Of a stretch of DNA of 25,110 nucleotides, positions 1-25,110 are shown piece by piece. The stretch lies in IMG/VR virus record IMGVR_UViG_2648501787_000018. One strand, given 5' to 3'. Made by a program: the position numbers and the translations under genes. The stretch's first letter is position 1, and each line of letters begins with the position of its first letter. This DNA comes from a virus (Duplodnaviria > Heunggongvirae > Uroviricota > Caudoviricetes). The notes beneath the pieces are model-generated. The model was not told where the DNA came from. It did not search any database and worked only from the letters and a program-made list of their open reading frames with translations.

Positions 1-693
1 TGTATTCCCCATTACAGGCAAACTTAACTTCATGGTATCGACCGCCGATTTAATGGCGTTCTGCGAATAGCTGATCTCCGCATCAATGAAAATCTGTGCC
101 ATAGCTCGCTGTAATTCTTTATCCTGTACTGGCTCCCATACAACGCCGTTGTAATGGTGAACAGTGTCAGAGTCAGCATGAATCGCCAGTTCACCGCCAT
201 AATGTGCCAGGAGAACTTCGCCGCGTTGACTTGCTCCCATCTGGTTAAGCGCCAGTGATGAAGCGTTATCGTCTTTTACCCGCTCTTTTTTCTTTACAGG
301 CAGTTCAACTACCTTTTTCTTTTCCGCCTGCTCTGCCCGTTCACGTTCCAGATATTCGCGCCAGTTCTCCCGTTTCTGGCTGTGCATTCCTTCAGGGTAA
401 TAATCAGCATCCCTGACACCTGCCACTGCCAGTTTCTGCCCGATGGTATTAACAAGCCCCGGACGCAATAACCCCGCCTGATAAAGACGCACGCGATAGC
501 GTCCGTCCGGTACGATTTGCAGGTTGTCCAGTTCGGCAAGTTGTTGCTCTCCAAGCCAGACAGGTGGCACGTTATCGCCAGCCAGTCGCCCGTCCTGTTC
601 CTGCCACTGTTTCGCATGTGCCCACGCATCACTACCCGCAAAAATGATGACTTCCGTCATTTTGTCACGCGGCTGGTGTTTTAAATTTGGCGC
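1..693 (-). CDS. Putative replication protein of the integrative element (P4-family primase/helicase-like), N-terminal part only; gene runs off the window start
   Basis: Minus-strand frame open from ATG at 693-691 to the window edge; absent from the ORF track because incomplete. Translation begins MKKAPNLKHQPRDKMTEVIIFAGSDAWAHAKQWQ. Residues about 165-200 (GEVLLAHYGGELAIHADSDTVHHYNGVVWEP) resemble the D5_N-type motif of P4-family primases. Assignment from memory. Confidence 0.4.
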
Positions 694-698
694 TTTTT

Positions 699-998
699 TC
701 ATTTCTGCTCTCTCCACGCGGCAATCATGTTTTTCAGTTCCTGTAGTTTTTTATCAACATCCATACATGACACATGGTTATTTCTGGAAAGCGGGATTTC
801 CCGCCTGAATCTGCTAATAAAGATCTCCACGTTCAGCGAACTATGAAATGAATAGCCATCACGAATAAAATACACACGGTCAAACATCAGTTCTTTTACC
901 GTTACTCTGTTACCGTTCTTATCCAGATAAATAGCGCCGGGGATAATTTTGGGGTGTGCATAACCGCTGGCAGTCAAGCCAGATAAATATGTTCTCAT
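699..998 (-). CDS. Hypothetical protein (99 aa), island replication/regulation operon
   Basis: Track ORF with ATG start, same strand and tight spacing with flanking genes. No recognisable motif. Confidence 0.4.
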   Translation of the reverse strand: MRTYLSGLTASGYAHPKIIPGAIYLDKNGNRVTVKELMFDRVYFIRDGYSFHSSLNVEIFISRFRREIPLSRNNHVSCMDVDKKLQELKNMIAAWREQK

Positions 999-1004
999 GA
1001 TTAT

Positions 1005-1325
1005 TTATCCCCGATTTGAATCAGTATTCGCTTTCTTTATGGCATTTAATGCATCTGTGGCATTTTCAATGGTGCACCGTAACGAAATATCAAACTGCCC
1101 AAGCATTGCCAGTAACAAACCGATATTACCCATATCAATGCGCATAGCCTTTTCGTCATAGTCCTCATTTTCTGACGCATGCCACATCAGGCTACCAATT
1201 GACGCAACAGCCATTGATATATTGTCAGTAGCCCCATCCGCAGCGGAATAAACCTTTTTAGCAATATCATGCTCACAGTTAAAATGCGGATTAATCAGGT
1301 ACTGGTAATTTGACATATCAGGCAT
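1005..1325 (-). CDS. Hypothetical protein (106 aa)
   Basis: Track ORF; its ATG (1325-1323) sits 3 nt from the upstream gene's stop (1320-1318), suggesting co-translation. No recognisable motif. Confidence 0.4.
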   Translation of the reverse strand: MPDMSNYQYLINPHFNCEHDIAKKVYSAADGATDNISMAVASIGSLMWHASENEDYDEKAMRIDMGNIGLLLAMLGQFDISLRCTIENATDALNAIKKANTDSNRG

Positions 1326-1520
1326 GGCATACCCCCTGACGAATACGGGCGGCGAATACCATCACGCAGCCAGCCGGGGATTGCTGGCGTGCTTCCTGTT
1401 CGCTGCTGGCCTCAATGGTAATCACGCGCGGTTGTGCCGTGCTCAGGGCGATAAAACGCCAGATGTATTTATTCAGGTTGTGCGAATCCCGCCCTTGCGG
1501 GTGTGTGGTATGATTTCTCA
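1318..1520 (-). CDS. Hypothetical small protein (about 67 aa)
   Basis: Internal ATG at 1520-1518 preceded by GAGG about 7 nt upstream; the longer track ORF (to 1632) has no better start signal. Function unknown. Confidence 0.35.
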
Positions 1521-1729
1521 TAGCTACCTCGATACTGTTGCTATCGTTGGTGGTTAGAAGCCCGTTGGTGTTCCTAGCACCTTCGGGCTTTGCTTTTTTA
1601 AGTGCCTCCGTGTTAAGGTGGCCACCTAACAATGAAAAGGCTAATTCAATAGGTGGTCACTTGTCAACGATCAAACGCGATAAAAGTCCTAAGGGTGATG
1701 GGCAATCTCCACAATTCAGAATGCGAATT

Positions 1730-1852
1730 TCTCCAGAGCTAAAAGAGCAATTCGACAAAGAAGCGCAGAGCGACGGCATAAGCCTAGCCAACTGGCTTAA
1801 AGAATTAGGGCGCAAAGAGCTGCTACGGCGCGGTATTGAACCAAAAGGATAA
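1730..1852 (+). CDS. Small ribbon-helix-helix-like (Arc/CopG-type) DNA-binding protein, about 40 aa; alternative TTG start at 1661
   Basis: MRISPELKEQFDKEAQSDGISLANWLKELGRKELLRRGIEPKG has an N-terminal beta-strand then two short helices typical of RHH proteins. Stop is 27 nt before the next gene. Start codon uncertain. Confidence 0.3.
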   Translation, partial: SPELKEQFDKEAQSDGISLANWLKELGRKELLRRGIEPKG

Positions 1853-1879
1853 GAATAATTGAAGTCAAGGAGCTAACAC

Positions 1880-2236
1880 ATGAAATACGAATTCTTCGCA
1901 ACAAGTAGCAGTAGTTTGGATGTATACATAGTCACTGTATCAAACGATTCTGGCTCGCTAATCATGACTTGTAATTGTCCAGCAGGAAGTAAAGGTATTC
2001 TATGTAGACACCGTAAAGCTTTAATTACCGGAAAAATCCGCGGTATATTCACTCCCCCAAGAAGGAATAATCCTGAAAAATTACAAGAAGCTATGAATTT
2101 AATAGCCACATATGGCATAGATAAAACATTAAAGTTGTACACTGATGAGTTAGAACGAGCAGAACAGACTTGGATAAGTGTTCGCGATAATTTGAGAGCA
2201 ATGATAAACGCTCTTGTTGAACCACCTAAATATTGA
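1880..2236 (+). CDS. Hypothetical protein with SWIM-type zinc-finger-like motif (CxC-x9-CxH), 118 aa
   Basis: Strong RBS (AAGGAG) about 8 nt upstream of ATG 1880; AT-rich coding sequence; motif TCNCPAGSKGILCRH matches the CxCxnCxH SWIM pattern. No family recognised beyond the motif. Confidence 0.45.
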   Translation: MKYEFFATSSSSLDVYIVTVSNDSGSLIMTCNCPAGSKGILCRHRKALITGKIRGIFTPPRRNNPEKLQEAMNLIATYGIDKTLKLYTDELERAEQTWISVRDNLRAMINALVEPPKY

Positions 2237-2308
2237 ACTGATCACATTGCCCACCAGTCACAAATGTGGCATTGTTGGTGATGCGTTCAAGTTTAGTGTA
2301 TATCCATT

Positions 2309-2338
2309 GGCGACCGCCCCAGGTCGCCTTTGTTTTGT
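2309..2338 (+). terminator. Rho-independent terminator downstream of the RHH/SWIM gene pair
   Basis: Inverted repeat GGCGACC-gcccca-GGTCGCC followed by TTTGTTTTGT. Confidence 0.4.
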
Positions 2339-2919
2339 CACTGAATGCGGTTACCAAAGTAAAACTCAGGCTGATATTCACGTATCAGCCTTTTTTCTTC
2401 TTCCTCCAGCTCACGCTTTTTGCGCTTACATGCCTGTAGCTCCCTCCCCTTCTCGCTGGCACTTATTTGATATTGCTCTTTACGGCGGGAAAAATCCTGT
2501 AATGCACCCCACGGGATACCATAAGCCCCCGTTTTTCTGATACCTGGTATCACATTCCTGAATACCCAGTTACTGAAACGATGGGCGAACGTGCCAGGAG
2601 TAACAGCTTTGCGACTTCTGGCGATCAGCTTGTAAAAACCAGATTCAGAAACGACGCTATGATTTGGATTTCCGCGAATACCGTAGCTTAAAGCGACGGT
2701 ATTCTTCTCATCCACATCCAGAGCTTTTAGAGCATCGCGTGAGTTGCTTATTTCCAGAGCTTCACAAACATCCTTTGCAACAAACCACGGATCGCCGTTC
2801 AGATACACCACACGAACATCCACGCCATCAAAGCGCAGAACGACAAGATCACGAATATCGCAGAATTTTTTTACTGAACGAGCGTACCCCTTGCCCGTCA
2901 CGGCAATATTTTTATTCAT
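2338..2919 (-). CDS. BRO-N domain protein (phage antirepressor-like)
   Basis: VRVVYLNGDPWFVAKDVCEALEISNSRDALKALDVDEK ... SGFYKLIARSRK ... FSNWVFRNVIPGIRKTGAYG matches the conserved Bro-N domain pattern. GAGG RBS 8 nt upstream of ATG 2919. Confidence 0.75.
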   Translation of the reverse strand: MNKNIAVTGKGYARSVKKFCDIRDLVVLRFDGVDVRVVYLNGDPWFVAKDVCEALEISNSRDALKALDVDEKNTVALSYGIRGNPNHSVVSESGFYKLIARSRKAVTPGTFAHRFSNWVFRNVIPGIRKTGAYGIPWGALQDFSRRKEQYQISASEKGRELQACKRKKRELEEEEKRLIREYQPEFYFGNRIQ

Positions 2920-2934
2920 CGTTTTTTACCTCAC

Positions 2935-2963
2935 ATACAAAAAACCCCGCATTGCGTGCGGGG
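2935..2963 (-). terminator. Rho-independent terminator after alpA-like gene (minus strand)
   Basis: Hairpin CCCCGC-attgcgt-GCGGGG (2945-2963); on the minus strand it is followed by TTTTTTGTATG. Confidence 0.4.
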
Positions 2964-2977
2964 TATGAAAGATATTA

Positions 2978-3181
2978 TTAGTGGGGATTGGCCTGTTCTC
3001 GTTGTTTATCTAACCATGCATCTACATCTCTACGGTGCCAGGTATGCCGCCGCCCAATTCTGAACGGTTGAGGAAAACCATTATTTTCATCTTTCCAGAA
3101 ATTGATGAATGCGCTCATTGCCCCATAGCGCAAAATTTTCATTACGTCTTTAGTAAATAAAATATCTTCATTGGTATTCAT
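2978..3181 (-). CDS. alpA: AlpA/excisionase-family HTH transcriptional regulator (67 aa)
   Basis: Small HTH protein immediately downstream of the integrase; ...GFPQPFRIGRRHTWHRRDVDAWL fits the AlpA/Xis (HTH_17) pattern FP.P.R.G.R..W...DV..WL. Confidence 0.7.
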   Translation of the reverse strand: MNTNEDILFTKDVMKILRYGAMSAFINFWKDENNGFPQPFRIGRRHTWHRRDVDAWLDKQREQANPH

Positions 3182-3193
3182 TTGCTGAACTCC

Positions 3194-4432
3194 TCAACCA
3201 TTTACTATTCTCAAACCTTTCTTACCACCGGATCTATTAATTACCCCTTTTCTCGCCTCATCAAAAAAATCTCCTACCCATTGCATCATAATTTTGCGTT
3301 GTTCTAAATAAGTAGTTCTATTATAAATATCTCTTATTTTATCACCACTTTTATGTGCTAATGCAGCCTCAATAACATCAGGGTTAAAACCCTCCTCATT
3401 TAAAAGCGTACTCCACATCGAACGAAAACCGTGTAACGTTACAATCCCTTTGAACTTGCTGGCAGCAATTGGGGTATTGATAGTATTCTTTCCCATAGGA
3501 GCATCTTTTGTTCTGGAGGAAAAAAATATATAACGCCCTCTTTTTATTTTCTGCATTGTTCTTAGGATTCTAATAGCCTGTGATGAGAGAGGCACAACAT
3601 GTTCACGATGGCATTTCATTTTATGCGCGGGGATAATCCACAAGCCAGAATCAAAATCAATCTCGGACCACTCTGCTTTAATCGCCTCACCTGGCCTGAC
3701 CATTGTCAATATCTGGAATAAAAGTGCATTGTGAGCTATTTGATACTTATGAGGCACACTATCCCACCAACTCAGAAATTCAGGCAATCTTTCAACAGGT
3801 AGTGCAGCTAATGATTTATTTTTCTTTCCTGTGAATGCAGTTTTTATCTTAAGTAATGGATTCGTTTTCAATGCTCCACAATTTACAGCGTAATTCATAA
3901 TTTCATTTAATCTTGATATTAATTTTTTTTGCAACGCATTCTTATCGGATACGGCATCCAGAGCATTAATAGCTACTGGCGCTGTAATTTTCTCTATGCT
4001 GTACTTACCAAAGAAAGGAACAAGATATTTGTATACTTCATATTCGATATTATACAGCGTAGGTTTCCGCAATTCCGATCCCTTTTTAAAAGCGATCCAT
4101 GCATTAGCAACAGCTTCAAATGTTTGTAGATTTTTTAGTGACATCTCAATTTTACGATTTTTCTTCTCTGTCACTGGATCAACTCCACGTGCAATCATTC
4201 GCCGAAGTTCATCACGTATTTCCCGTGCTTCCGCGAGTGAGAATTCAGGAAAACGCCCTATCGTGTATGTCTGCCGTTTCTTCGTTATCGGATGGCTATA
4301 ACGGAAACGCCACACTTTCCCACCAGCTTTACTCACATTCAGCAATAAACCGAACCCATCATAAACGGCATAGTCCTTTTCACGTGGTTTCATTCCCTTA
4401 ACTTCAGTCACGGTTAATGGCTTTACCGGCAT
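3194..4432 (-). CDS. int: Tyrosine site-specific integrase, P4/IntS-like
   Basis: 412 aa. N-terminal arm-binding region (KPREKDYAVYDGFGLLLNVSKAGGKVWRFRY) and C-terminal catalytic residues (HGFRSMWST ... IRDIYNRTTY) typical of P4-type integrases. Confidence 0.9.
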   Translation of the reverse strand: MPVKPLTVTEVKGMKPREKDYAVYDGFGLLLNVSKAGGKVWRFRYSHPITKKRQTYTIGRFPEFSLAEAREIRDELRRMIARGVDPVTEKKNRKIEMSLKNLQTFEAVANAWIAFKKGSELRKPTLYNIEYEVYKYLVPFFGKYSIEKITAPVAINALDAVSDKNALQKKLISRLNEIMNYAVNCGALKTNPLLKIKTAFTGKKNKSLAALPVERLPEFLSWWDSVPHKYQIAHNALLFQILTMVRPGEAIKAEWSEIDFDSGLWIIPAHKMKCHREHVVPLSSQAIRILRTMQKIKRGRYIFFSSRTKDAPMGKNTINTPIAASKFKGIVTLHGFRSMWSTLLNEEGFNPDVIEAALAHKSGDKIRDIYNRTTYLEQRKIMMQWVGDFFDEARKGVINRSGGKKGLRIVNG

Positions 4433-4593
4433 CTATCGCCCTCATTTTTTAGTCCGTCATGTAGTCCTTTCAAGTCGATAACAAGCGATAAACTAACTCA
4501 TTATCAAGTAAAGAGAGGAAACACAAAAAATCACAACTCATTGAAAAGACTACAAAACGACACCAGAACATAAAAACAGGTAAGAAATGTACC

Positions 4594-5589
4594 CTACATC
4601 CAGAATGACGCAATACGTGAGCGTCGGGGATCACCATAACGACTGCCATCCGCATTGATGGATTCACCATCCCGCAACCAGACCCCACGTCCGTTCAGCT
4701 CACGTTTTTGTTCAGGCATAATCCGTCCTGAACAGGAAGGACACTGAATATAAGCCGCCTCACTTGCCAGCACAGGATCGGCAATATCACGGAAACCAGC
4801 AACCACATCGCCGCAGGGCTGAAAATACTCACCACAGTGTGGGCAGGGCCAGTACCAGCGACGTCGATCGCCACGGTTATAGAGTGACAGTATCCCCGTG
4901 GTTGGTGGAGCCTCATGCGGTGAAGTCCGTCGCCATTTCACATCCTTCACATCCCTGCCGGGGGAACTCTCCACCAGCGTCATACCACTGGACATAAATG
5001 TGGTGGTACGTTTTGAGGCAAGAGAGAAGGCATCCCCCTCGCCATCAATATCTTCCGGAAAACGGTCATAATCCGTCAGCGCCACGCATTTATAATCTGA
5101 TGAGGACATGATATTGACTGACGGCCAGCCGATTTTCAGGTAGTTGCCAGCAAGGAATGTTCTGTCATAAACGTTGTTGTCATTTTTGTTCGGACTCAGG
5201 CGACTGACCACTTCCGGGCTGACGCGAAACGTTCTGGCAAGTCGTTTTTTGGAGTGTTCGCGGGCTTTTTCCTCCGTCATCTGAATGATCAGCATATCCG
5301 CAGGATCGCAAATCACGTTGTAAATCACCCAGCCGTCAATCAGGCCGATAGTCTTGCCGGTTCGTGCCGGACCAACAAATATCACTGCGTCGTATTCACG
5401 CGAGGCCAGGCAGTTCATCGGCTCAATAACATACGGTGCCACCAGCGGATCCCACGGGACTGAGTTCCCTGCCCCCATGGGCACCCGCATATACTGAGCA
5501 ACGGCATCAGCAACCCGCATTCGTCTCGGTGCGCGAAGGATATAACCTGAATCGGTTCGTGCTGCCTTTGCGGTTTCCTGATTCAGCAT
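4594..5589 (-). pseudogene. Terminase large subunit, GpA family, truncated to the N-terminal 331 codons
   Basis: Walker A-like GPARTGKT and zinc-finger region WPCPHCGEYFQP ... CPSCSG as in lambda gpA (about 640 aa). The frame ends at ...RIASFWM well before the nuclease domain, followed by AT-rich island sequence. Start overlaps the Nu1-like stop (TAATG). Confidence 0.65.
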
Positions 5590-6083
5590 TACTCCTCCTG
5601 CTGTAATTCCTCCTCATCATCCGCACCTGCTTCGGTCACCCGCAGGGCTATCTGATCGCGCAGATCATCAATAATGGACTGAACACGGCTCACAGCGGCA
5701 GGCTGCAGACCGCAGTCACGTTCCAGAATATCCGGTAATGTTTCCAGTACCTGCACGACCGCTTTTGCCCAGATGGCAAACTCCCGTCTGACATCACTGG
5801 CCGGAATGAGTTGTGCCGTTTCCTGTTCGAACTTAAGACGCTCACGTTCAGACTGATACCAGGCTTTGCGCTCATGCGCGTCCATTTCGCCTTCTGCAAC
5901 CGGCGGTGGTAATGCCAGAAATGCCGACACAATATCAACCACCCGATAAAGCTTGAGGTTGCTTTCATGCCCCCCTGCAACGGGTAGATTTTGCAGCCTT
6001 GCCGCAGCAGTCTGGCGATGTACACCTGACAGTGCCGCCAGTTGACTGATATTCAGCGTCAGATTTTTTAACTCTTGATCCAT
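5589..6083 (-). CDS. Terminase small subunit, Nu1-like
   Basis: 164 aa; N-terminal HTH (LNISQLAALSGVHRQTAAARLQN) and position immediately upstream of gpA as in lambda Nu1. GGAG RBS 7 nt upstream of ATG 6083. Confidence 0.8.
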   Translation of the reverse strand: MDQELKNLTLNISQLAALSGVHRQTAAARLQNLPVAGGHESNLKLYRVVDIVSAFLALPPPVAEGEMDAHERKAWYQSERERLKFEQETAQLIPASDVRREFAIWAKAVVQVLETLPDILERDCGLQPAAVSRVQSIIDDLRDQIALRVTEAGADDEEELQQEE

Positions 6084-6099
6084 ACCCGCTCCAGAATGT

Positions 6100-6285
6100 T
6101 TTAAACATGCATCTTGCGAACAACTTTAGGCAAACGGTGTTAGTGATGAACAAAAAACAATCAAAATCGACACCATAAAAATAAAACTAATGCAATATCA
6201 ATGCATTACAGTAGTGGTGATGACGAATGAAATTTCAAAAACTAGCCTTTTTCCGCGCCGCTCCCGCCCCGTGGCAGGCCACCCC
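6100..6285 (-). other. Putative cos region (cosN about 6253-6275, cosB between it and the Nu1-like start)
   Basis: About 180 bp upstream of the Nu1-like start, the minus strand reads GGGGCGGGAGCGGCGCGGAAAAAGG, resembling the lambda cosN region (GGGCGGCGACCTCGCGGGTTTTCGC), followed by an AT-rich stretch with a 7-bp inverted repeat TAATGCA/TGCATTA. Exact nick sites cannot be set from sequence. Confidence 0.45.
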
Positions 6286-6536
6286 ACCGGAAGGACCCGC
6301 CAAAATGAGAGTGATTATCACCATTGCTGATGAATAAATTGATGAAAATCATTGAAACGCCTTTCAGCAAGATAACGGCGACGGTCGTTGTTGAACTCCG
6401 TAACTCTGCTACTAAGGTTAAAAGCATGGCCATCTTTTGCCACCGGCAAATCTTCAATGGATTTCCCCTGCCGGTTTTTTATTCCTCACATTATCGCAGC
6501 CCCTCAGTGAAGGGCTGCTGTAATGCCTGCTGTTAC

Positions 6537-6920
6537 TCAGTAACGACCGCGCCTTCCGGTAATTTCATACCGGCAAATACCGGACAGCCCGGGGATCGTT
6601 ATCTGCAGCTGGTTAGCCAGGGAGTTAATCTCAGCGACCAACACTGGCTTCGTATAGCGCCATGCCGCCAGCCCTTGTCCACAGAAGCTCGCCATATCTT
6701 TTTTCTGATCAAACTCATGACACTTCATATTGAGCTGCGCACTTAAGCTGTTGCGATGCTGAAGTTCTCCGGTGAAGTAGTCATCCAGGACTTTATAGGC
6801 TGCATATTTAAATCCGGGGTTTAGCCATGCTGCATAATCATAAGCAACAAACTTCCCGCCATATGTTCCACCGTGTACACCGCGCTCAGTAAAAACCACA
6901 GATTCGTGTTTTTTCTCCAT
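6537..6920 (-). CDS. Hypothetical protein (127 aa) with KilA-N-like motif, directly downstream of Rz
   Basis: GGTYGGKFVAYDYAAWLNPGFKYAAYKVL resembles the KilA-N core (compare [25 protein letters not shown] in the 269-aa protein at 12039-12848), but the N-terminal half of the domain seems absent. Confidence 0.4.
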   Translation of the reverse strand: MEKKHESVVFTERGVHGGTYGGKFVAYDYAAWLNPGFKYAAYKVLDDYFTGELQHRNSLSAQLNMKCHEFDQKKDMASFCGQGLAAWRYTKPVLVAEINSLANQLQITIPGLSGICRYEITGRRGRY

Positions 6921-7388
6921 CTACTTAATGCGCTGGGTGCGGATATATTCCTGCGCCCCTTCCAGTTGCTTCTGCATCGTCATCAACCGTTCTCTGAGGG
7001 TGAAATAATCCCGTTCAGCGGTGTCTGCCAGTCGGGGGCTGGTTGCATTATCCATGCTGGTGGGTCCGGTGGCTTCACGCACGGCTGCGGAGCAACTGGC
7101 ATTGACCCGCAGGCGCTTACGACCAGCGGCAACATCAGCGCGCAGAGTTTCATTTTCAGTTTTCGCATCGGCTAACTCCTTCGTGTATTTTGCATCGATC
7201 GCAGCAACATCACGCTGACGCTGCTGCATGTCAGCGATGGTGGCGGTCGCCTGCTTCAGCTCACTGACTTTTTTATCACGCTGTTCTTTGTAGGCGATGG
7301 CGTTATCACGGTAATGATTAACAGCCCATGACAGGCAGGCGATGATACAAATAACCAGAGCGGAGATAATCGCGGTTACTCTGCTCAT
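6921..7388 (-). CDS. Rz: i-spanin Rz
   Basis: [16 protein letters not shown]...[13 protein letters not shown]...[16 protein letters not shown]...MQKQLEG is near-identical to lambda Rz as I recall it. Confidence 0.9.
6983..7168 (-). CDS. Rz1: o-spanin Rz1 (lipoprotein, embedded in Rz in the +1 frame)
   Basis: [22 protein letters not shown]...[32 protein letters not shown]: lipobox LVVSAC and proline-rich segment match lambda Rz1; fully nested in Rz. Confidence 0.85.
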
Positions 7389-8276: not shown

Positions 8277-9329
8277 TTATTTCCCCACCAGTTCACTTAC
8301 CTCTTTCACCGTCTGATTAAACCGCTCTGACTCAAGTTCAACACCTAACGCCCGACGCCCCAGCGCCATTGCTGCTTTTATTGTGGAACCGGATCCCATA
8401 AAGAAATCAGCAACCAGATCACCAGGGCGACTACTGGCATTGATTATTTGCCGGAGCATATCCGCCGGTTTCTCGCACGGATGTTTACCCGGGTAGAACT
8501 GAACGGGTTTATGCGTCCAGACATCGGTATAAGGCACGGAGACTGATACGGAGAAATAGCGCCGGAGAGATTTAAACTCATCCAGCAATTCAGAATATTT
8601 GCGATTCAGTGAATCATAAGATGCCACCAGCTGGTGGTGTGGTTGTTCCAGTTGTTGTTCCTGAAACTTCTCTGCCGCTATACGGGAAAACAGTGCCTGT
8701 AACTTCCGATAGTCAGCCTCATTCGGCAACTGCCACTGACTGGCACCAAACCAGTGGGAAACCATATTTTTCTTACCTGTGGCTTCGGCAATTTGTTTTG
8801 CCGTTATACCCAGTTCGGCACGAGCATCCCTGAAATACGATATCAGCGGTGCCATTATGTGCTGTTTGAGTTCCCTTTCTTTTGCTGCATAGCCGTCACT
8901 TTTGCCGCGATATGGCCCCTGGTAATGTTCAGCAAACAGAACGCGCTCTGTGGCAGGAAAATATGCGCGCAGACTTTCTTTATTACACCCATTCCAACGT
9001 CCGGACGGCTTCGCCCAGATGATATGGTTAAGCACGTTGAAACGTTCACGCATCATGATCTCAATATCAGATGCCAGGCGATGCCCACAGAACAGATAAA
9101 GGCTTCCGGCAGGTTTTAACACCCGCCAGAACTGGGCCAGACAGTGGTCCAGCCACTTAAGGTAATCTTCGTCCCCTTTCCACTGATTGTCCCAACCGTT
9201 GGGTTTCACCTTGAAGTACGGCGGATCGGTAACAATCAGGTCAATGGAATCATCAGGCAGGGACTGAATAAAATGCAGGCAATCAGCGTTGATTAAATCA
9301 ACACTGTTTATTTTTACAGTATTTTTCAT
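8277..9329 (-). CDS. DNA methyltransferase, beta-class amino-MTase (N6-adenine or N4-cytosine), orphan
   Basis: 350 aa; catalytic motif IV (IVTDPPYF) near the N-terminus and AdoMet motif I (ADFFMGSGST) near the C-terminus, the beta-class order. No restriction endonuclease gene adjacent. Confidence 0.8.
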   Translation of the reverse strand: MKNTVKINSVDLINADCLHFIQSLPDDSIDLIVTDPPYFKVKPNGWDNQWKGDEDYLKWLDHCLAQFWRVLKPAGSLYLFCGHRLASDIEIMMRERFNVLNHIIWAKPSGRWNGCNKESLRAYFPATERVLFAEHYQGPYRGKSDGYAAKERELKQHIMAPLISYFRDARAELGITAKQIAEATGKKNMVSHWFGASQWQLPNEADYRKLQALFSRIAAEKFQEQQLEQPHHQLVASYDSLNRKYSELLDEFKSLRRYFSVSVSVPYTDVWTHKPVQFYPGKHPCEKPADMLRQIINASSRPGDLVADFFMGSGSTIKAAMALGRRALGVELESERFNQTVKEVSELVGK

Positions 9330-17803: not shown

Positions 17804-18496
17804 ATGAACATAGGAAATCGAGTCAGACAACTTCGCCAGGCGAAGAACATGAAAATCGCCGATCTCGCTGAAGCAATAGGAGTGGATGCGGCGAATATCT
17901 CGCGCCTCGAAACAGGTAAGCAGAAACAATTCACTGAACAAGCCCTGAGTAATATTGCCAGGAGCTTAGGTGTTGATATTGCTGATCTCTTTACCTTAGA
18001 CCTCAAAAGTAATACTGTATGTAAAAACAGTATTAGTGAGGATGTTGCGCAGGTGAAGGATGTATTCCGTATTGAAATGCTGGATGTCAGTGCCAGTGCG
18101 GGAAATGGCCTTATCCAGGGCGGTGATGTCATTGATGTGATTCATGCCATTGAATACAGAACTGATAATGCTGTATCGATGTTTGGTGGACGACCAGCAA
18201 ATCACATTAAAGTTATCAACGTTCGTGGGGACAGTATGTGTCCAACCATTGAGCCAGGAGATCTCATCTTCGTTGATATCAGTATCAATCAGTTTGATGG
18301 GGATGGTATATATGTATTTGGTTTTGATGATAAAATTTACGTCAAACGACTGCAAATGATACCTGATAAACTGCTGGTAATTTCTGATAATCAGATTTAC
18401 CGCGAATGGGGAATTACCAGCGAAAACGAACACCGGTTTATGGTCTTTGGAAAGGTCTTAATCAGTCAGTCACAAACCCTTAAGCGACACAATTAA
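17804..18496 (+). CDS. cI: CI-type prophage repressor (HTH plus S24 LexA-like peptidase domain)
   Basis: 230 aa; N-terminal HTH (MKIADLAEAIGVDAANISRLETGKQ); C-terminal peptidase core (VRGDSMCPTIEPGDLIFVD ... IYVKRL) with Ser and Lys. Confidence 0.9.
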   Translation: MNIGNRVRQLRQAKNMKIADLAEAIGVDAANISRLETGKQKQFTEQALSNIARSLGVDIADLFTLDLKSNTVCKNSISEDVAQVKDVFRIEMLDVSASAGNGLIQGGDVIDVIHAIEYRTDNAVSMFGGRPANHIKVINVRGDSMCPTIEPGDLIFVDISINQFDGDGIYVFGFDDKIYVKRLQMIPDKLLVISDNQIYREWGITSENEHRFMVFGKVLISQSQTLKRHN

Positions 18497-23151: not shown

Positions 23152-23723
23152 TGAACAACTTAATGATCAACCTTGAGACGATGGGGAAAAATAAGGATGC
23201 GCCGATCGTTTCTATTGGCGCGGTGTTCTTCACTCCAGAAACCGGAGACATCGGACAAGAATTCTATGCGGTTGTCAGCCTGGACAGTGCTATGAAGCAA
23301 GGAGCTACACCTGACGGCGATACCATCCTGTGGTGGTTGAAACAAAGCCCTGAAGCGCGAGCTGCAATCTGTATTGATGATACTTTGTCGATCAGCGATG
23401 CTCTCTCAGAACTAAACCATTTCATTAACCGGCACGCAGACAATACGAAATATTTAAAAGTCTGGGGTAACGGGGCCACCTTCGACAACGTAATTTTACG
23501 TGGAGCTTATGAGCGAGCAGGACAAATCTGCCCGTGGGCGTACTGGAATGACCACGATGTACGCACGATCGTTACGCTTGGGCGTTCCATCGGATTCGAC
23601 CCCAAAATGGACATGCCTTTCGATGGCGAACGGCACAACGCCCTGGCTGATGCCCGTCATCAGGCAAAATATGTTTCCGCTATCTGGCAGAAATTAATTC
23701 CTGCCACCAGCACAGAATTATGA
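23151..23723 (+). CDS. 3'-5' exonuclease (DnaQ-like fold), phage-encoded
   Basis: ATG 23151 with GGAGG 7 nt upstream; N-terminal MINLETMGKNKDAPIVSIGAVFF (Exo I-like acidic motif), later WGNGATFDNVIL and ERHNALADARHQAKY (Exo III-like H..AL.DA). Confidence 0.6.
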   Translation: MNNLMINLETMGKNKDAPIVSIGAVFFTPETGDIGQEFYAVVSLDSAMKQGATPDGDTILWWLKQSPEARAAICIDDTLSISDALSELNHFINRHADNTKYLKVWGNGATFDNVILRGAYERAGQICPWAYWNDHDVRTIVTLGRSIGFDPKMDMPFDGERHNALADARHQAKYVSAIWQKLIPATSTEL

Positions 23724-23759
23724 TTTTCCCGGGTGCAGCCGGTTTTGATGGAGAAAATT

Positions 23760-24032
23760 ATGAACACCTTGTTTTTACTGATGGCTGAATTCAATACCCC
23801 AAACATTGAACTCTCAGCAGTTAGCCAAAAGTACTTTGGCATGAGTCCAGCCACGGCAGAAGCAAAAGCAAACGCTTGTAAGTTGCCCGTTCCAACATAT
23901 CGCATCGGCACATCACAAAAAGCAAAACGTTGCATCAATATTCAGGATCTTGCGGAATACATAGACAAAAGGCGAGAAGAAGGGCGTGCTGAGTGGGAAA
24001 AAGTCAGAACGGAAAAACAAAAATATAACTAA
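23760..24032 (+). CDS. PrtN/excisionase-like small DNA-binding protein (about 90 aa)
   Basis: MNTLFLLMAEFNTPNIELSAVSQKYFGMSPATAEAKANACKLPVPTYRIG fits the PrtN/Xis-like pattern; internal ATG 23760 has GGAG 8 nt upstream (track start 23733). Confidence 0.55.
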   Translation: MNTLFLLMAEFNTPNIELSAVSQKYFGMSPATAEAKANACKLPVPTYRIGTSQKAKRCINIQDLAEYIDKRREEGRAEWEKVRTEKQKYN

Positions 24033-24045
24033 ACTAAAACTATGG

Positions 24046-24075
24046 ATAACCCGTATATGTACGGGTTATTTTTCT
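24046..24075. terminator. Terminator between convergent operons
   Basis: ATAACCCGTA-tatg-TACGGGTTAT followed by TTTTTC on the plus strand; overlaps the stop codon of the minus-strand gene. Confidence 0.55.
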
Positions 24076-24614
24076 TTATCACTATCTTTTCTTGATTTGA
24101 ACAATCCACTAACAACGAAACCAACCAAACCAACAATACTAATTGTACTTGTACCTAGTAATGCAACGATCGCTTCAACTGGAGGCTTTCCTTCATGTGC
24201 AATAAGAAACGATGTAAACATTGCGACAACGAATAAGCACCAACACGACATAAACCAAACCGTGAATGAGGCCATTTTTGTCCGAAGCTCATTGTCTATT
24301 TCTTTACCAGTTGCGTCAGCTATCTTATCCCGTACTTGTGATTTGAGCATATCAAGCTGAGCTTGAAGACTGTCCATTCTGTTCTGCTGCATAAACTCAT
24401 GCAATGCACCAGTATTAGAACCAAACTCTTCTGCCTCCAGAATAGCTTTATTTTCTGAAGAAGAATCATCGTCGCTCTCATGATTAGACGGCTCAAATGC
24501 AGATTTAAAAACCTGTTCTTGACTGTCAGTAGAGTTTAAGGATGCTTCAGAGCGACCATTTTCAACACCTGCGGCCGCTCCGATAAGTTTATAGATATCT
24601 GAATTGTGAGACAT
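24066..24614 (-). CDS. Hypothetical membrane protein (182 aa): acidic N-terminal region, two C-terminal TM helices; candidate toxin/effector partner of the upstream Panacea protein
   Basis: ATG 24614 with AGGGA upstream, 22 nt after the upstream gene's stop. TM segments FTVWFMSCWCLFVVAMFTSFLIA and AIVALLGTSTISIVGLVGFVVSGLF; AT-rich. Confidence 0.5.
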   Translation of the reverse strand: MSHNSDIYKLIGAAAGVENGRSEASLNSTDSQEQVFKSAFEPSNHESDDDSSSENKAILEAEEFGSNTGALHEFMQQNRMDSLQAQLDMLKSQVRDKIADATGKEIDNELRTKMASFTVWFMSCWCLFVVAMFTSFLIAHEGKPPVEAIVALLGTSTISIVGLVGFVVSGLFKSRKDSDKEK

Positions 24615-24636
24615 GTCATCCCTGAATATTACTTTT

Positions 24637-25110
24637 TCAGAGGCCCTGACATTGCTGTCGGTTATTCAATAAATCATGATAATAAGCCTTGATCGCATCA
24701 TTTGAGATGATTGACGAGCCAATACCATTATAAGCTTGTGACCAAGGCGTACCTGGCATATGAGTTAGAGTTGATAACTCAATTCCATTTTTCGAGCCGT
24801 AAAACTTATAAACAGCCCCGATAATGCTCTCTGCTTGCGGATCCATAGTAACGATGCCACCAAAAGGAGCTACTGCTACATTCGTAACAGGTTTATTCCC
24901 ATAGTCTTTGAAAGCATCGTACATTCCAGGAATAACTGGACCGTACTTCCACGCGGAGACACATTCATTGAGCAAAGGCTTACCTGTTAATGCTAAATAG
25001 TAACCATGGGCAATATAAGTAAGCTTCTGCAGTTGCATGTGGGTCAGAGGATTATGATGTTGGTTTCCCAACGTTATGAATTTATTGGCTATTTGTACCG
25101 GACTGTACAT
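24637..25110 (-). CDS. Panacea-domain (DUF4065, GepA/SocA/PanA-like) protein; start codon at the window edge
   Basis: PVQIANKFITLGNQHHNPLTHMQLQKLTYIAHGYYLALTGKPLLNECVSAWKYGPVIPGMYDAFKDYG matches the DUF4065 pattern (A.yfi...lt.lkLqKLlY.a.g..La..g.pLf.e...AW.yGPV...vY). ATG occupies 25110-25108, so true upstream extent is unverified. Confidence 0.65.
   Translation of the reverse strand: MYSPVQIANKFITLGNQHHNPLTHMQLQKLTYIAHGYYLALTGKPLLNECVSAWKYGPVIPGMYDAFKDYGNKPVTNVAVAPFGGIVTMDPQAESIIGAVYKFYGSKNGIELSTLTHMPGTPWSQAYNGIGSSIISNDAIKAYYHDLLNNRQQCQGL

Follow-up and report, generated by a model that had tools for sequence, protein, structure and literature searches.

The known PanA–PanT toxin–antitoxin pair of Escherichia coli at the edge of a dusA-integrated lambdoid prophage, with predicted LexA control of the operon

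The last two genes of the DNA analysed here are best explained as the PanA–PanT type II toxin–antitoxin operon of a dusA-integrated lambdoid E. coli prophage, an explanation in which we have considerable confidence. The DNA, referred to throughout as the window, is a stretch of 25,110 nucleotides from a virus of the Caudoviricetes (IMG/VR record IMGVR_UViG_2648501787_000018). At the core of this explanation is the reading that the pair is the known E. coli PanA–PanT system with its pore-forming toxin, which we hold to be very probably correct because the published experiments used an identical antitoxin and a 96% identical toxin. Our finding is therefore a rediscovery of a published and experimentally validated pair, and its main value lies in correct annotation. 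Indeed, the first-pass annotation of the window, made from the sequence alone, had guessed at a toxin–antitoxin pair; that guess was right but the pair was already known, and what appears to be new is a predicted SOS (LexA) switch of the operon.

The identity of the pair follows from comparison with sequenced genomes and with the literature. Three complete E. coli chromosomes match positions 23700-25110 of the window (1411 nt) at 100% identity, and others match at 96-99.9%. PanA of the window is identical to WP_000287252.1, the RefSeq accession of the antitoxin in the genomes that match at 100%, and this protein together with PanT WP_000019185.1 makes up the E. coli STEC O31 pair, entered as 'Membrane' among the nine experimentally verified PanAT pairs in Table 1 of Kurata et al. 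2022 (PNAS 119:e2102212119, PMC8832971). The supplement to the same study assigns the STEC O31 pair to cluster T3, with the A|T gene order, a gap of 22 nt and the flag 'NotPhage' (Kurata et al. 2022, PMC8832971). The window pair shares with it the identical antitoxin, the antitoxin-then-toxin order, the 22-nt spacer and the length of the toxin; it differs by seven substitutions in PanT (V35A, K37E, S47R, V130A, A131G, T134V and S178G relative to the tested allele, three of the seven in the first transmembrane helix), leaving 175 of 182 residues identical (96.2%). We located the tested toxin allele in strain STEC1588, where it occupies the same neighbourhood, with xis and a dusA fragment. Furthermore, the two genes already bear the names PanT toxin and PanA antitoxin in the record of phage PhiR47_1 (GenBank PV340566.1), which is 98.3% identical. 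From the identity of PanA, the 175 matching residues of PanT and the PhiR47_1 labels it follows that the membrane protein belongs to a described and tested toxin family. The first-pass statement that it could not be recognised as a described family is thus overturned: it is PanT(Esc. col.) of cluster T3. The features of the locus are collected in Table 1.

Table 1. Features of the panAT locus and its convergent neighbour, in window coordinates.
Feature	Position	Strand	Description
xis, PrtN-family excisionase	23733-24032	(+)	PF11112, E 3.9e-23; phrog_1300, E 6.2e-40
Hairpin terminator	24044-24071	both	Between the panT and xis stops; overlaps the panT stop codon
panT	24066-24614	(-)	182-aa ORF; membrane toxin, cluster T3
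panT TM helix 2, residues ~145-172	24099-24182	(-)	Holds the almost invariant ALLGTSTISIVGLVGFVVSGLFKS block
panT TM helix 1, residues ~114-140	24195-24275	(-)	Kyte-Doolittle; preceded by the invariant G-x-x-IDN-x-LR motif
panT codons 1-75	24390-24614	(-)	Acidic, Ser/Asn-rich, predicted disordered; presumed PanA-binding region
panA-panT spacer	24615-24636	(-)	22 nt, AAAAGTAATATTCAGGGATGAC; panT ribosome-binding site; no hairpin
panA	24637-25110	(-)	157-aa ORF; stand-alone Panacea (DUF4065) antitoxin; ATG is the last 3 bases of the window

The domain content of PanA is that of a Panacea antitoxin. Its match to the Pfam family PF13274 (SocA_Panacea, formerly DUF4065; 66.3 bits, cut-off 25.7, E 5.9e-18) covers positions 1-112 of the 113 in the profile, and PHROGs places the protein in phrog_1281 (E 6.6e-49). 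The GPV motif described for Panacea (Kurata et al. 2022, PMC8832971) is present at residues 57-59, and also in all ten orthologous PanAs examined. PanA therefore possesses both the Panacea/DUF4065 domain and the GPV signature of PanAT systems. A partial match to the NCBIfam model SocA_antitoxin (NF047745; E 9.8e-28) reaches 97 bits, well below the equivalog cut-off of 190, and for this reason PanA was rejected as a SocA equivalog. In SocA–SocB, the type VI toxin–antitoxin system of Caulobacter crescentus, and in the pair described here, both antitoxins carry a Panacea domain, whereas the partner here is a two-TM membrane protein in place of the replication-inhibiting SocB, and PanA antitoxins neutralise without a need for ClpXP. 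Membership of the SocAB type was set aside on the NF047745 score and on the partner, which matches no characterised family. Sequence searches of the PDB with PanA and PanT gave no meaningful match, and a PADLOC-DB v2 scan with PanA returned a single chance-level match (E 0.02) to a type I REase model.

PanT has the properties of a cluster T3 toxin, namely an acidic N-terminus (net charge -11 over residues 1-75), two hydrophobic segments, delimited by Kyte-Doolittle windows of 19 residues scoring at least 1.6 (Table 1), and its close identity to WP_000019185.1. Over its full length it matches phrog_13343 (E 1.9e-113, PHROGs). Searches of Pfam and NCBIfam with PanT gave nothing above cut-off, the sub-threshold noise coming from DUF2207_C, 7tm_6 and exosortase Y, and PADLOC-DB v2 gave no match for it. 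Weak matches to DUF2975 in nine of 32 PanT homologues (best E 0.0014) were not trusted. We also rejected PanT as a phage holin: no holin family in Pfam or PHROGs matches it, and the gene adjoins xis and the attachment site, outside the lysis genes.

Alignment of 32 PanT sequences revealed a marked asymmetry along the protein. The N-terminal half is hypervariable, with no conserved columns in residues 1-75, and the invariant columns include G103, I106, D107, N108, L110, R111, W125 and C126. The ALLGTSTISIVGLVGFVVSGLFKS block of the second transmembrane helix is kept even in homologues with 31-33% overall identity, and this helix is likely to line the pore or to mediate oligomerisation. Such a pattern is compatible with a membrane effector under constraint to which a fast-evolving region, one that would bind the antitoxin, is attached. 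An AlphaFold2 model built from the same number of aligned sequences contains helices at residues 68-139 and 146-178; it is of low confidence (mean pLDDT 58, with 76-84 in the hydrophobic part and below 50 for residues 16-53) and supports the helical-hairpin topology only.

The published experiments provide the functional context. PanT(Esc. col.) is toxic in E. coli and stops growth, and co-expression of the cognate PanA neutralises it (Kurata et al. 2022, PMC8832971). Transcription, translation and replication are inhibited together and indiscriminately by the toxin (Kurata et al. 2022, PMC8832971), which provokes strong depolarisation of the inner membrane, reported by DiSC3(5), and entry of SYTOX Green, effects that the authors read as large pores (PMC8832971). 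Neither ClpXP nor Lon is needed for neutralisation by PanA antitoxins (Kurata et al. 2022, PMC8832971). Stable PanA–PanT complexes were recovered by pull-down for five other pairs, the E. coli pair not being among them (PMC8832971). It could be argued that the window encodes an innocuous membrane protein whose position behind a Panacea-domain gene is fortuitous, given that its PanT allele differs from the one assayed and that PanT has no Pfam domain. We regard this as extremely improbable. The published assays established toxin–antitoxin behaviour for an identical PanA together with a PanT of 96% identity, with the Panacea protein as antitoxin and the membrane protein as toxin, just as the first-pass annotation had proposed; the pairing is retained in every homologue lineage sampled (see below), and the transmembrane hairpin is under strong constraint.

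How PanA might engage its partner is suggested by a mutation-validated AlphaFold model of a Bartonella PanT:PanA complex, in which Panacea contacts the unstructured N-terminal region of the toxin and a short helix ahead of the transmembrane part. The Bartonella choladocola (apis) PanT(D11/T12):PanA pair resembles ours in its stand-alone Panacea antitoxin and in a toxin with a charged N-terminal region, C-terminal transmembrane helices and depolarisation of the pore type. It differs in belonging to another sequence cluster, the homology of which to T3 is only suspected by the Kurata authors.

The layout of the locus is that of a compact operon. Both genes lie on the same strand, antitoxin then toxin, with a short spacer, which is the two-gene architecture of PanAT systems; the spacer sequence is identical in 11 of the 13 loci compared and is one A shorter in the other two. 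The Panacea gene, the 22-nt gap and the 182-residue protein with an acidic N-terminus and two TM helices all lie where they had been placed at first pass. Likewise upheld is the description of the pair as AT-rich (40.3% GC, against 48.0% for the rest of the window), convergent with the left operon and separated from it by a terminator. The convergent gene is xis, the last gene of the prophage early-left operon, the start of which is set at window position 23760 by RefSeq. The hairpin between the two stop codons has a stem of 10-12 bp, and terminator-like scores were obtained for both strands. With a folding energy of -12.7 kcal/mol (z = -3.1), it was equalled by none of 200 shuffled sequences. 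On the sequence evidence, panA and then panT make up a single transcription unit that ends at this hairpin, which is common to the convergent xis. An Rfam scan of the operon and its leader found no family.

The leader lies outside the window, in which the panA start codon is terminal. On looking past the window end in an identical genome (locus L002), we found the promoter that the first-pass annotation had anticipated for the pair: a sigma-70 consensus sequence, TTGACA-16-TATAAT, with 12 of 12 matches, 185 nt upstream of the panA ATG, from which the transcription unit starts. This promoter is kept in all 12 compared loci that include the leader. In the same genome an exact CTGT-N8-ACAG sequence is located at -141 to -122 relative to the panA ATG. 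Only two such exact sequences occur in the 13.4-kb locus, against 0.13 expected; the second forms the operator of host lexA, lies approximately 5 kb from the panA leader and served as a positive control.

Scoring with a position-weight matrix extends this observation. The matrix, a rough one, draws on about 19 SOS boxes of E. coli; known sites score 12.7-26.8 with it. Three leader sites, at -141, -118 and -37, score 18.1, 19.0 and 17.4, compared with 19.8 and 20.7 for the boxes of lexA in the same locus. In the scan of 129,620 positions, sites scoring at least 15 were confined to panA leaders, the regions before tum/dinI-like phage genes, lexA and two other places in the window, and the remaining positions reached at most 13.5. 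Boxes recur in orthologues from Enterobacter, Salmonella and Klebsiella though the leader sequences are otherwise unrelated. The Enterobacter orthologue has TTGACT-16-TATAAT followed by a box at -132 that scores 21.3, and boxes at -34 (score 22.6) and -38 (score 22.5) are found in the Salmonella and Klebsiella leaders, respectively. One Klebsiella locus has boxes only before the upstream dinI gene, P2-type relatives have them only far upstream, before dinI-like genes, and the matrix scan found no box in the leader of one further orthologue (L029).

The leader thus presents candidate operators of the CTGT-N8-ACAG type at or just downstream of a promoter, the sequence arrangement of the LexA regulon, and on these grounds we judge SOS (LexA) control of the panAT operon to be moderately probable. 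Our literature search found no paper linking LexA to PanAT, and the promoter and LexA boxes of this locus are absent from the description of the STEC O31 pair in Kurata et al. 2022. The promoter and the LexA-box-like operators hence offer a concrete hypothesis for the missing regulatory input of PanAT.

Several SOS-regulated small membrane toxins exist in E. coli (TisB/IstR-1, HokE, DinQ). The panAT operon would share with them a membrane-depolarising toxin behind LexA-box-like operators, here predicted; they belong to type I and pair small peptides with RNA antitoxins, whereas panAT has a protein antitoxin and a toxin of 182 residues. It is conceivable that PanT is an SOS-induced membrane effector comparable to TisB or HokE, or an accessory holin, such that depolarisation after LexA cleavage would tune lysis timing or persistence. 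The three LexA-box-like sites behind a consensus promoter, the boxes kept in diverged orthologues, the published pore formation by PanT and the position of an Enterobacter homologue 1.2 kb downstream of a phage holin gene all speak for such a role. However, the antitoxin is co-transcribed upstream of the toxin, so that induction alone should not free PanT, and the absence of any holin family match in Pfam or PHROGs counts against it further. We consider this role quite unlikely.

The distribution of PanT homologues bears on what the pair may do for its carrier. A search with PanT returned 67 clusters, all from Enterobacterales where the source named an organism. All 10 of the homologue lineages sampled (31-69% identity) have a same-strand Panacea gene at a distance of 21-45 nt upstream of the PanT homologue, which answers the earlier question of whether relatives of the membrane protein co-occur with Panacea genes, and PanA and PanT have diverged in parallel across these lineages. 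In five lineages, all in P2/186-like prophages, the pair is placed between gpA, the replication gene, and the portal gene, three of the five with a dinI-like gene also alongside gpA; the neighbours there include a reverse transcriptase, a DUF4145 protein, or a CBASS cyclase accompanied by a Cap15-type effector. One lineage (Providencia) has the pair beside a type I RM system, and another has it inside the structural module of an E217-like phage. All of the genomic contexts that we looked up are mobile or defence-like.

These neighbourhoods invite the proposal that the pair acts in abortive infection or superinfection exclusion: an invading phage would inactivate or titrate PanA, or be sensed by it, and the pores formed by PanT would kill the lysogen before the invader completes its cycle. 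We give this proposal slightly less than an even chance. The occurrence of homologous pairs beside CBASS, reverse transcriptase, DUF4145 and type I RM genes is circumstantial evidence in its favour, and the moron-like composition of the pair and its own promoter also speak for it. On the other hand, PADLOC has no model for the pair and gave no match, and LexA control would be atypical of constitutively armed defence systems; a literature search found no experimental test or phenotype of phage defence for this pair. Because relatives of the pair occupy a variable region in P2/186-like prophages and have known defence genes as neighbours, a phage-defence role is worth testing.

Taken together, these observations suggest how the operon might work. 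PanA, a bare Panacea domain, would bind PanT at its acidic, variable N-terminal part and at the helix that precedes the transmembrane segments, by analogy with the Bartonella model, and would thereby prevent insertion or oligomerisation of the conserved glycine-rich hairpin. LexA, bound at the three leader sites, would keep the operon quiet in the unstressed lysogen, and the SOS response would derepress it through the same signal that induces the prophage. The likeliest role, and the least certain step, would be prophage-encoded killing of a host under attack or stress, as abortive infection or exclusion. It is tempting to generalise that T3 PanAT operons, found repeatedly between the replication and portal genes in P2/186-like prophages and at att-proximal moron sites, are SOS-controlled prophage weapons, abortive-infection or exclusion modules whose consensus promoter LexA would hold shut until DNA damage or phage attack; this generalisation is a tentative one, which we doubt more than we credit. 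If true, it would link a characterised pore-forming toxin–antitoxin system both to the SOS regulon and to phage defence, neither of which has been reported.

The genomes identical over 23700-25110 also place the pair beyond what the window itself can reveal. In them the exonuclease gene is followed by xis, by panT and panA on the other strand and, after a further 305 nt, by a dusA fragment and then host genes. The dusA remnant is a displaced 5' fragment of 105 nt, and the host genes beyond it are a DUF2713 gene, zur, dinF and lexA. Since the dusA fragment and host genes follow panA, the pair marks the outer margin of a lambdoid prophage integrated at dusA, in agreement with the first-pass reading of a self-contained moron at the prophage edge. 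In the record of PhiR47_1, an inducible phage, panA and the integrase gene lie near opposite ends, at distances of 307 nt and about 200 nt, respectively. Should these ends join across attP, panAT and int would lie on either side of it and diverge from it. Despite its 'NotPhage' flag in the Kurata supplement, the validated E. coli pair is phage-borne: the window pair is found in three sequenced phages as well as in a lambdoid prophage integrated at dusA. That a validated pair apparently sits beside attP of dusA-integrating lambdoid phages, PhiR47_1 included, may be useful to the PanAT field.

Of 5426 complete E. coli genomes, 79 carry the pair, in every case intact, on the chromosome and as a single copy. 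A wider query, for the xis-exonuclease neighbourhood together with the pair, matched 741 genomes, 79 of which carry the pair; it is thus optional cargo at this position. These figures bear on a role in addiction, whereby loss or abortive excision of the prophage would leave a labile PanA to decay and a stable PanT to kill the cured cell. Type II modules on mobile elements classically act in addiction. Kurata et al. 2022 (PMC8832971) raise this role for PanATs in the vicinity of transposons and prophages. The direct proximity of the pair to the attachment site and its retention in 79 genomes as an intact pair accord with this. Carriage by only 79 of the 741 genomes does not, no differential stability of PanA and PanT is known, neutralisation needs neither ClpXP nor Lon, and excision alone does not remove the pair because it stays on the phage circle. 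Stabilisation of the prophage by addiction is thus unlikely, if less so than the role as an SOS-induced effector. As a minor observation on the prophages themselves, a genome identical over the panAT pair differs elsewhere in the prophage.

Divergence within the pair is asymmetric. Comparison of the window with 12 other loci (L001-L009 and L025-L027, of which L025 carries the experimentally tested PanT allele) revealed that the PanA protein is unchanged in 11 of them, though nucleotide changes reach 11. Conversely, PanT differs across the same loci at as many as 12 amino acids, the product of 26 nucleotide changes, and these differences concentrate in the N-terminal region and TM1.

The leader of panA, directly beyond window base 25110, is supplied by L002 (7412-7600), a genome locus identical to the window over the pair, and contains a perfect sigma-70 promoter. 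Downstream of this promoter lie three LexA-box-like sites, sequence matches positioned at -141, -118 and -37 from the ATG; such sites are also present in the leaders of the Enterobacter (L010), Salmonella (L030) and Klebsiella (L031) orthologues. Additionally, the E. coli and Enterobacter leaders have a palindrome in common despite their differing flanks; it may fold as a hairpin in the RNA or serve as an operator. At a similar place, three other PanAT homologue loci (L012, L013 and L015) display, by eye, hairpins with other stems and a GATGA-like loop.

The two genes of the E. coli pair are separated by a 22-nt spacer without a hairpin, unlike those of more distant PanAT loci in P2/186-type and E217-like prophages, where the spacer spans 41-45 nt. 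Within this longer spacer, five loci possess a GC-rich hairpin whose stem sequences vary from locus to locus; a T run comes after it in four of these loci. The hairpin looks like a candidate intrinsic attenuator, which in the distant loci would hold transcription of the toxin lower than that of the antitoxin.

Two further LexA-box matches within the window are both strong. One lies inside the ORF of a CI-like, LexA-family repressor (17804-18496, + strand) and the other falls in the first codons of a DNA methyltransferase ORF (8277-9329, - strand).

Coordinates of features (matrix score: rough position-weight matrix from about 19 E. coli SOS boxes)
Feature	Locus and position	Strand	Remarks
Palindrome AACAGTGAT(G/T)ATACTGTT	L002 7442-7459		-48 to -31 from panA ATG
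Same palindrome	L010 2456-2473		
Spacer hairpin	L012 2960-3000		
Spacer hairpin	L015 2960-3000		
Spacer hairpin	L017 2957-3000		
Spacer hairpin	L019 2957-3000		
Spacer hairpin	L021 2956-3000		
LexA-box match TACTGTATGTAAAAACAGTA	window 18013-18032		consensus 17/20, matrix score 25.6
LexA-box match CACTGTTTATTTTTACAGTA	window 9302-9321		matrix score 22.3
Directly downstream of PanAT	L015 3964-5724		reverse transcriptase
Directly downstream of PanAT	L019 4051-5962		CBASS cyclase + Cap15-type effector
Directly downstream of PanAT	L017 3853-4551		DUF4145 protein
Directly downstream of PanAT	L013 3866-6495		type I RM methylase + specificity subunit
Integrase	window 3194-4432	-	in window 1-5589, which spans the integrase-bearing element and the terminase fragment
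Terminase large subunit, N-terminal fragment	window 4594-5589	-	

PanAT homologues sit among defence genes, since their immediate downstream neighbours encode reverse transcriptase, CBASS, DUF4145 and type I RM functions. The pair of E. coli STEC O31 has been labelled 'NotPhage' (supplementary table, row GCF_000281775.1; Kurata et al. 2022, PMC8832971); we found that this pair resides in a prophage integrated at dusA and is also carried by phages PhiR47_1, 1720a-02 and phiSTEC1575-Stx2k.

At the opposite end of the window, the truncated terminase large-subunit gene adjoins an integrase-bearing element. The same layout occurs in E. coli EJN001 (L024 1875-14586), where a satellite-like island of ~10.6 kb splits the prophage terL by insertion. 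Its genes comprise int, an HTH regulator, Bro-N, an Icd-like gene, primase and SSB, together with a prohead-protease/major-capsid fusion and a DUF1441 small-terminase-like gene. The island looks like a capsid-forming satellite of the PICI type, housed inside a potential helper prophage. Of 5426 complete E. coli genomes, 8 have 80% or more of window positions 1-7000 in common with it.
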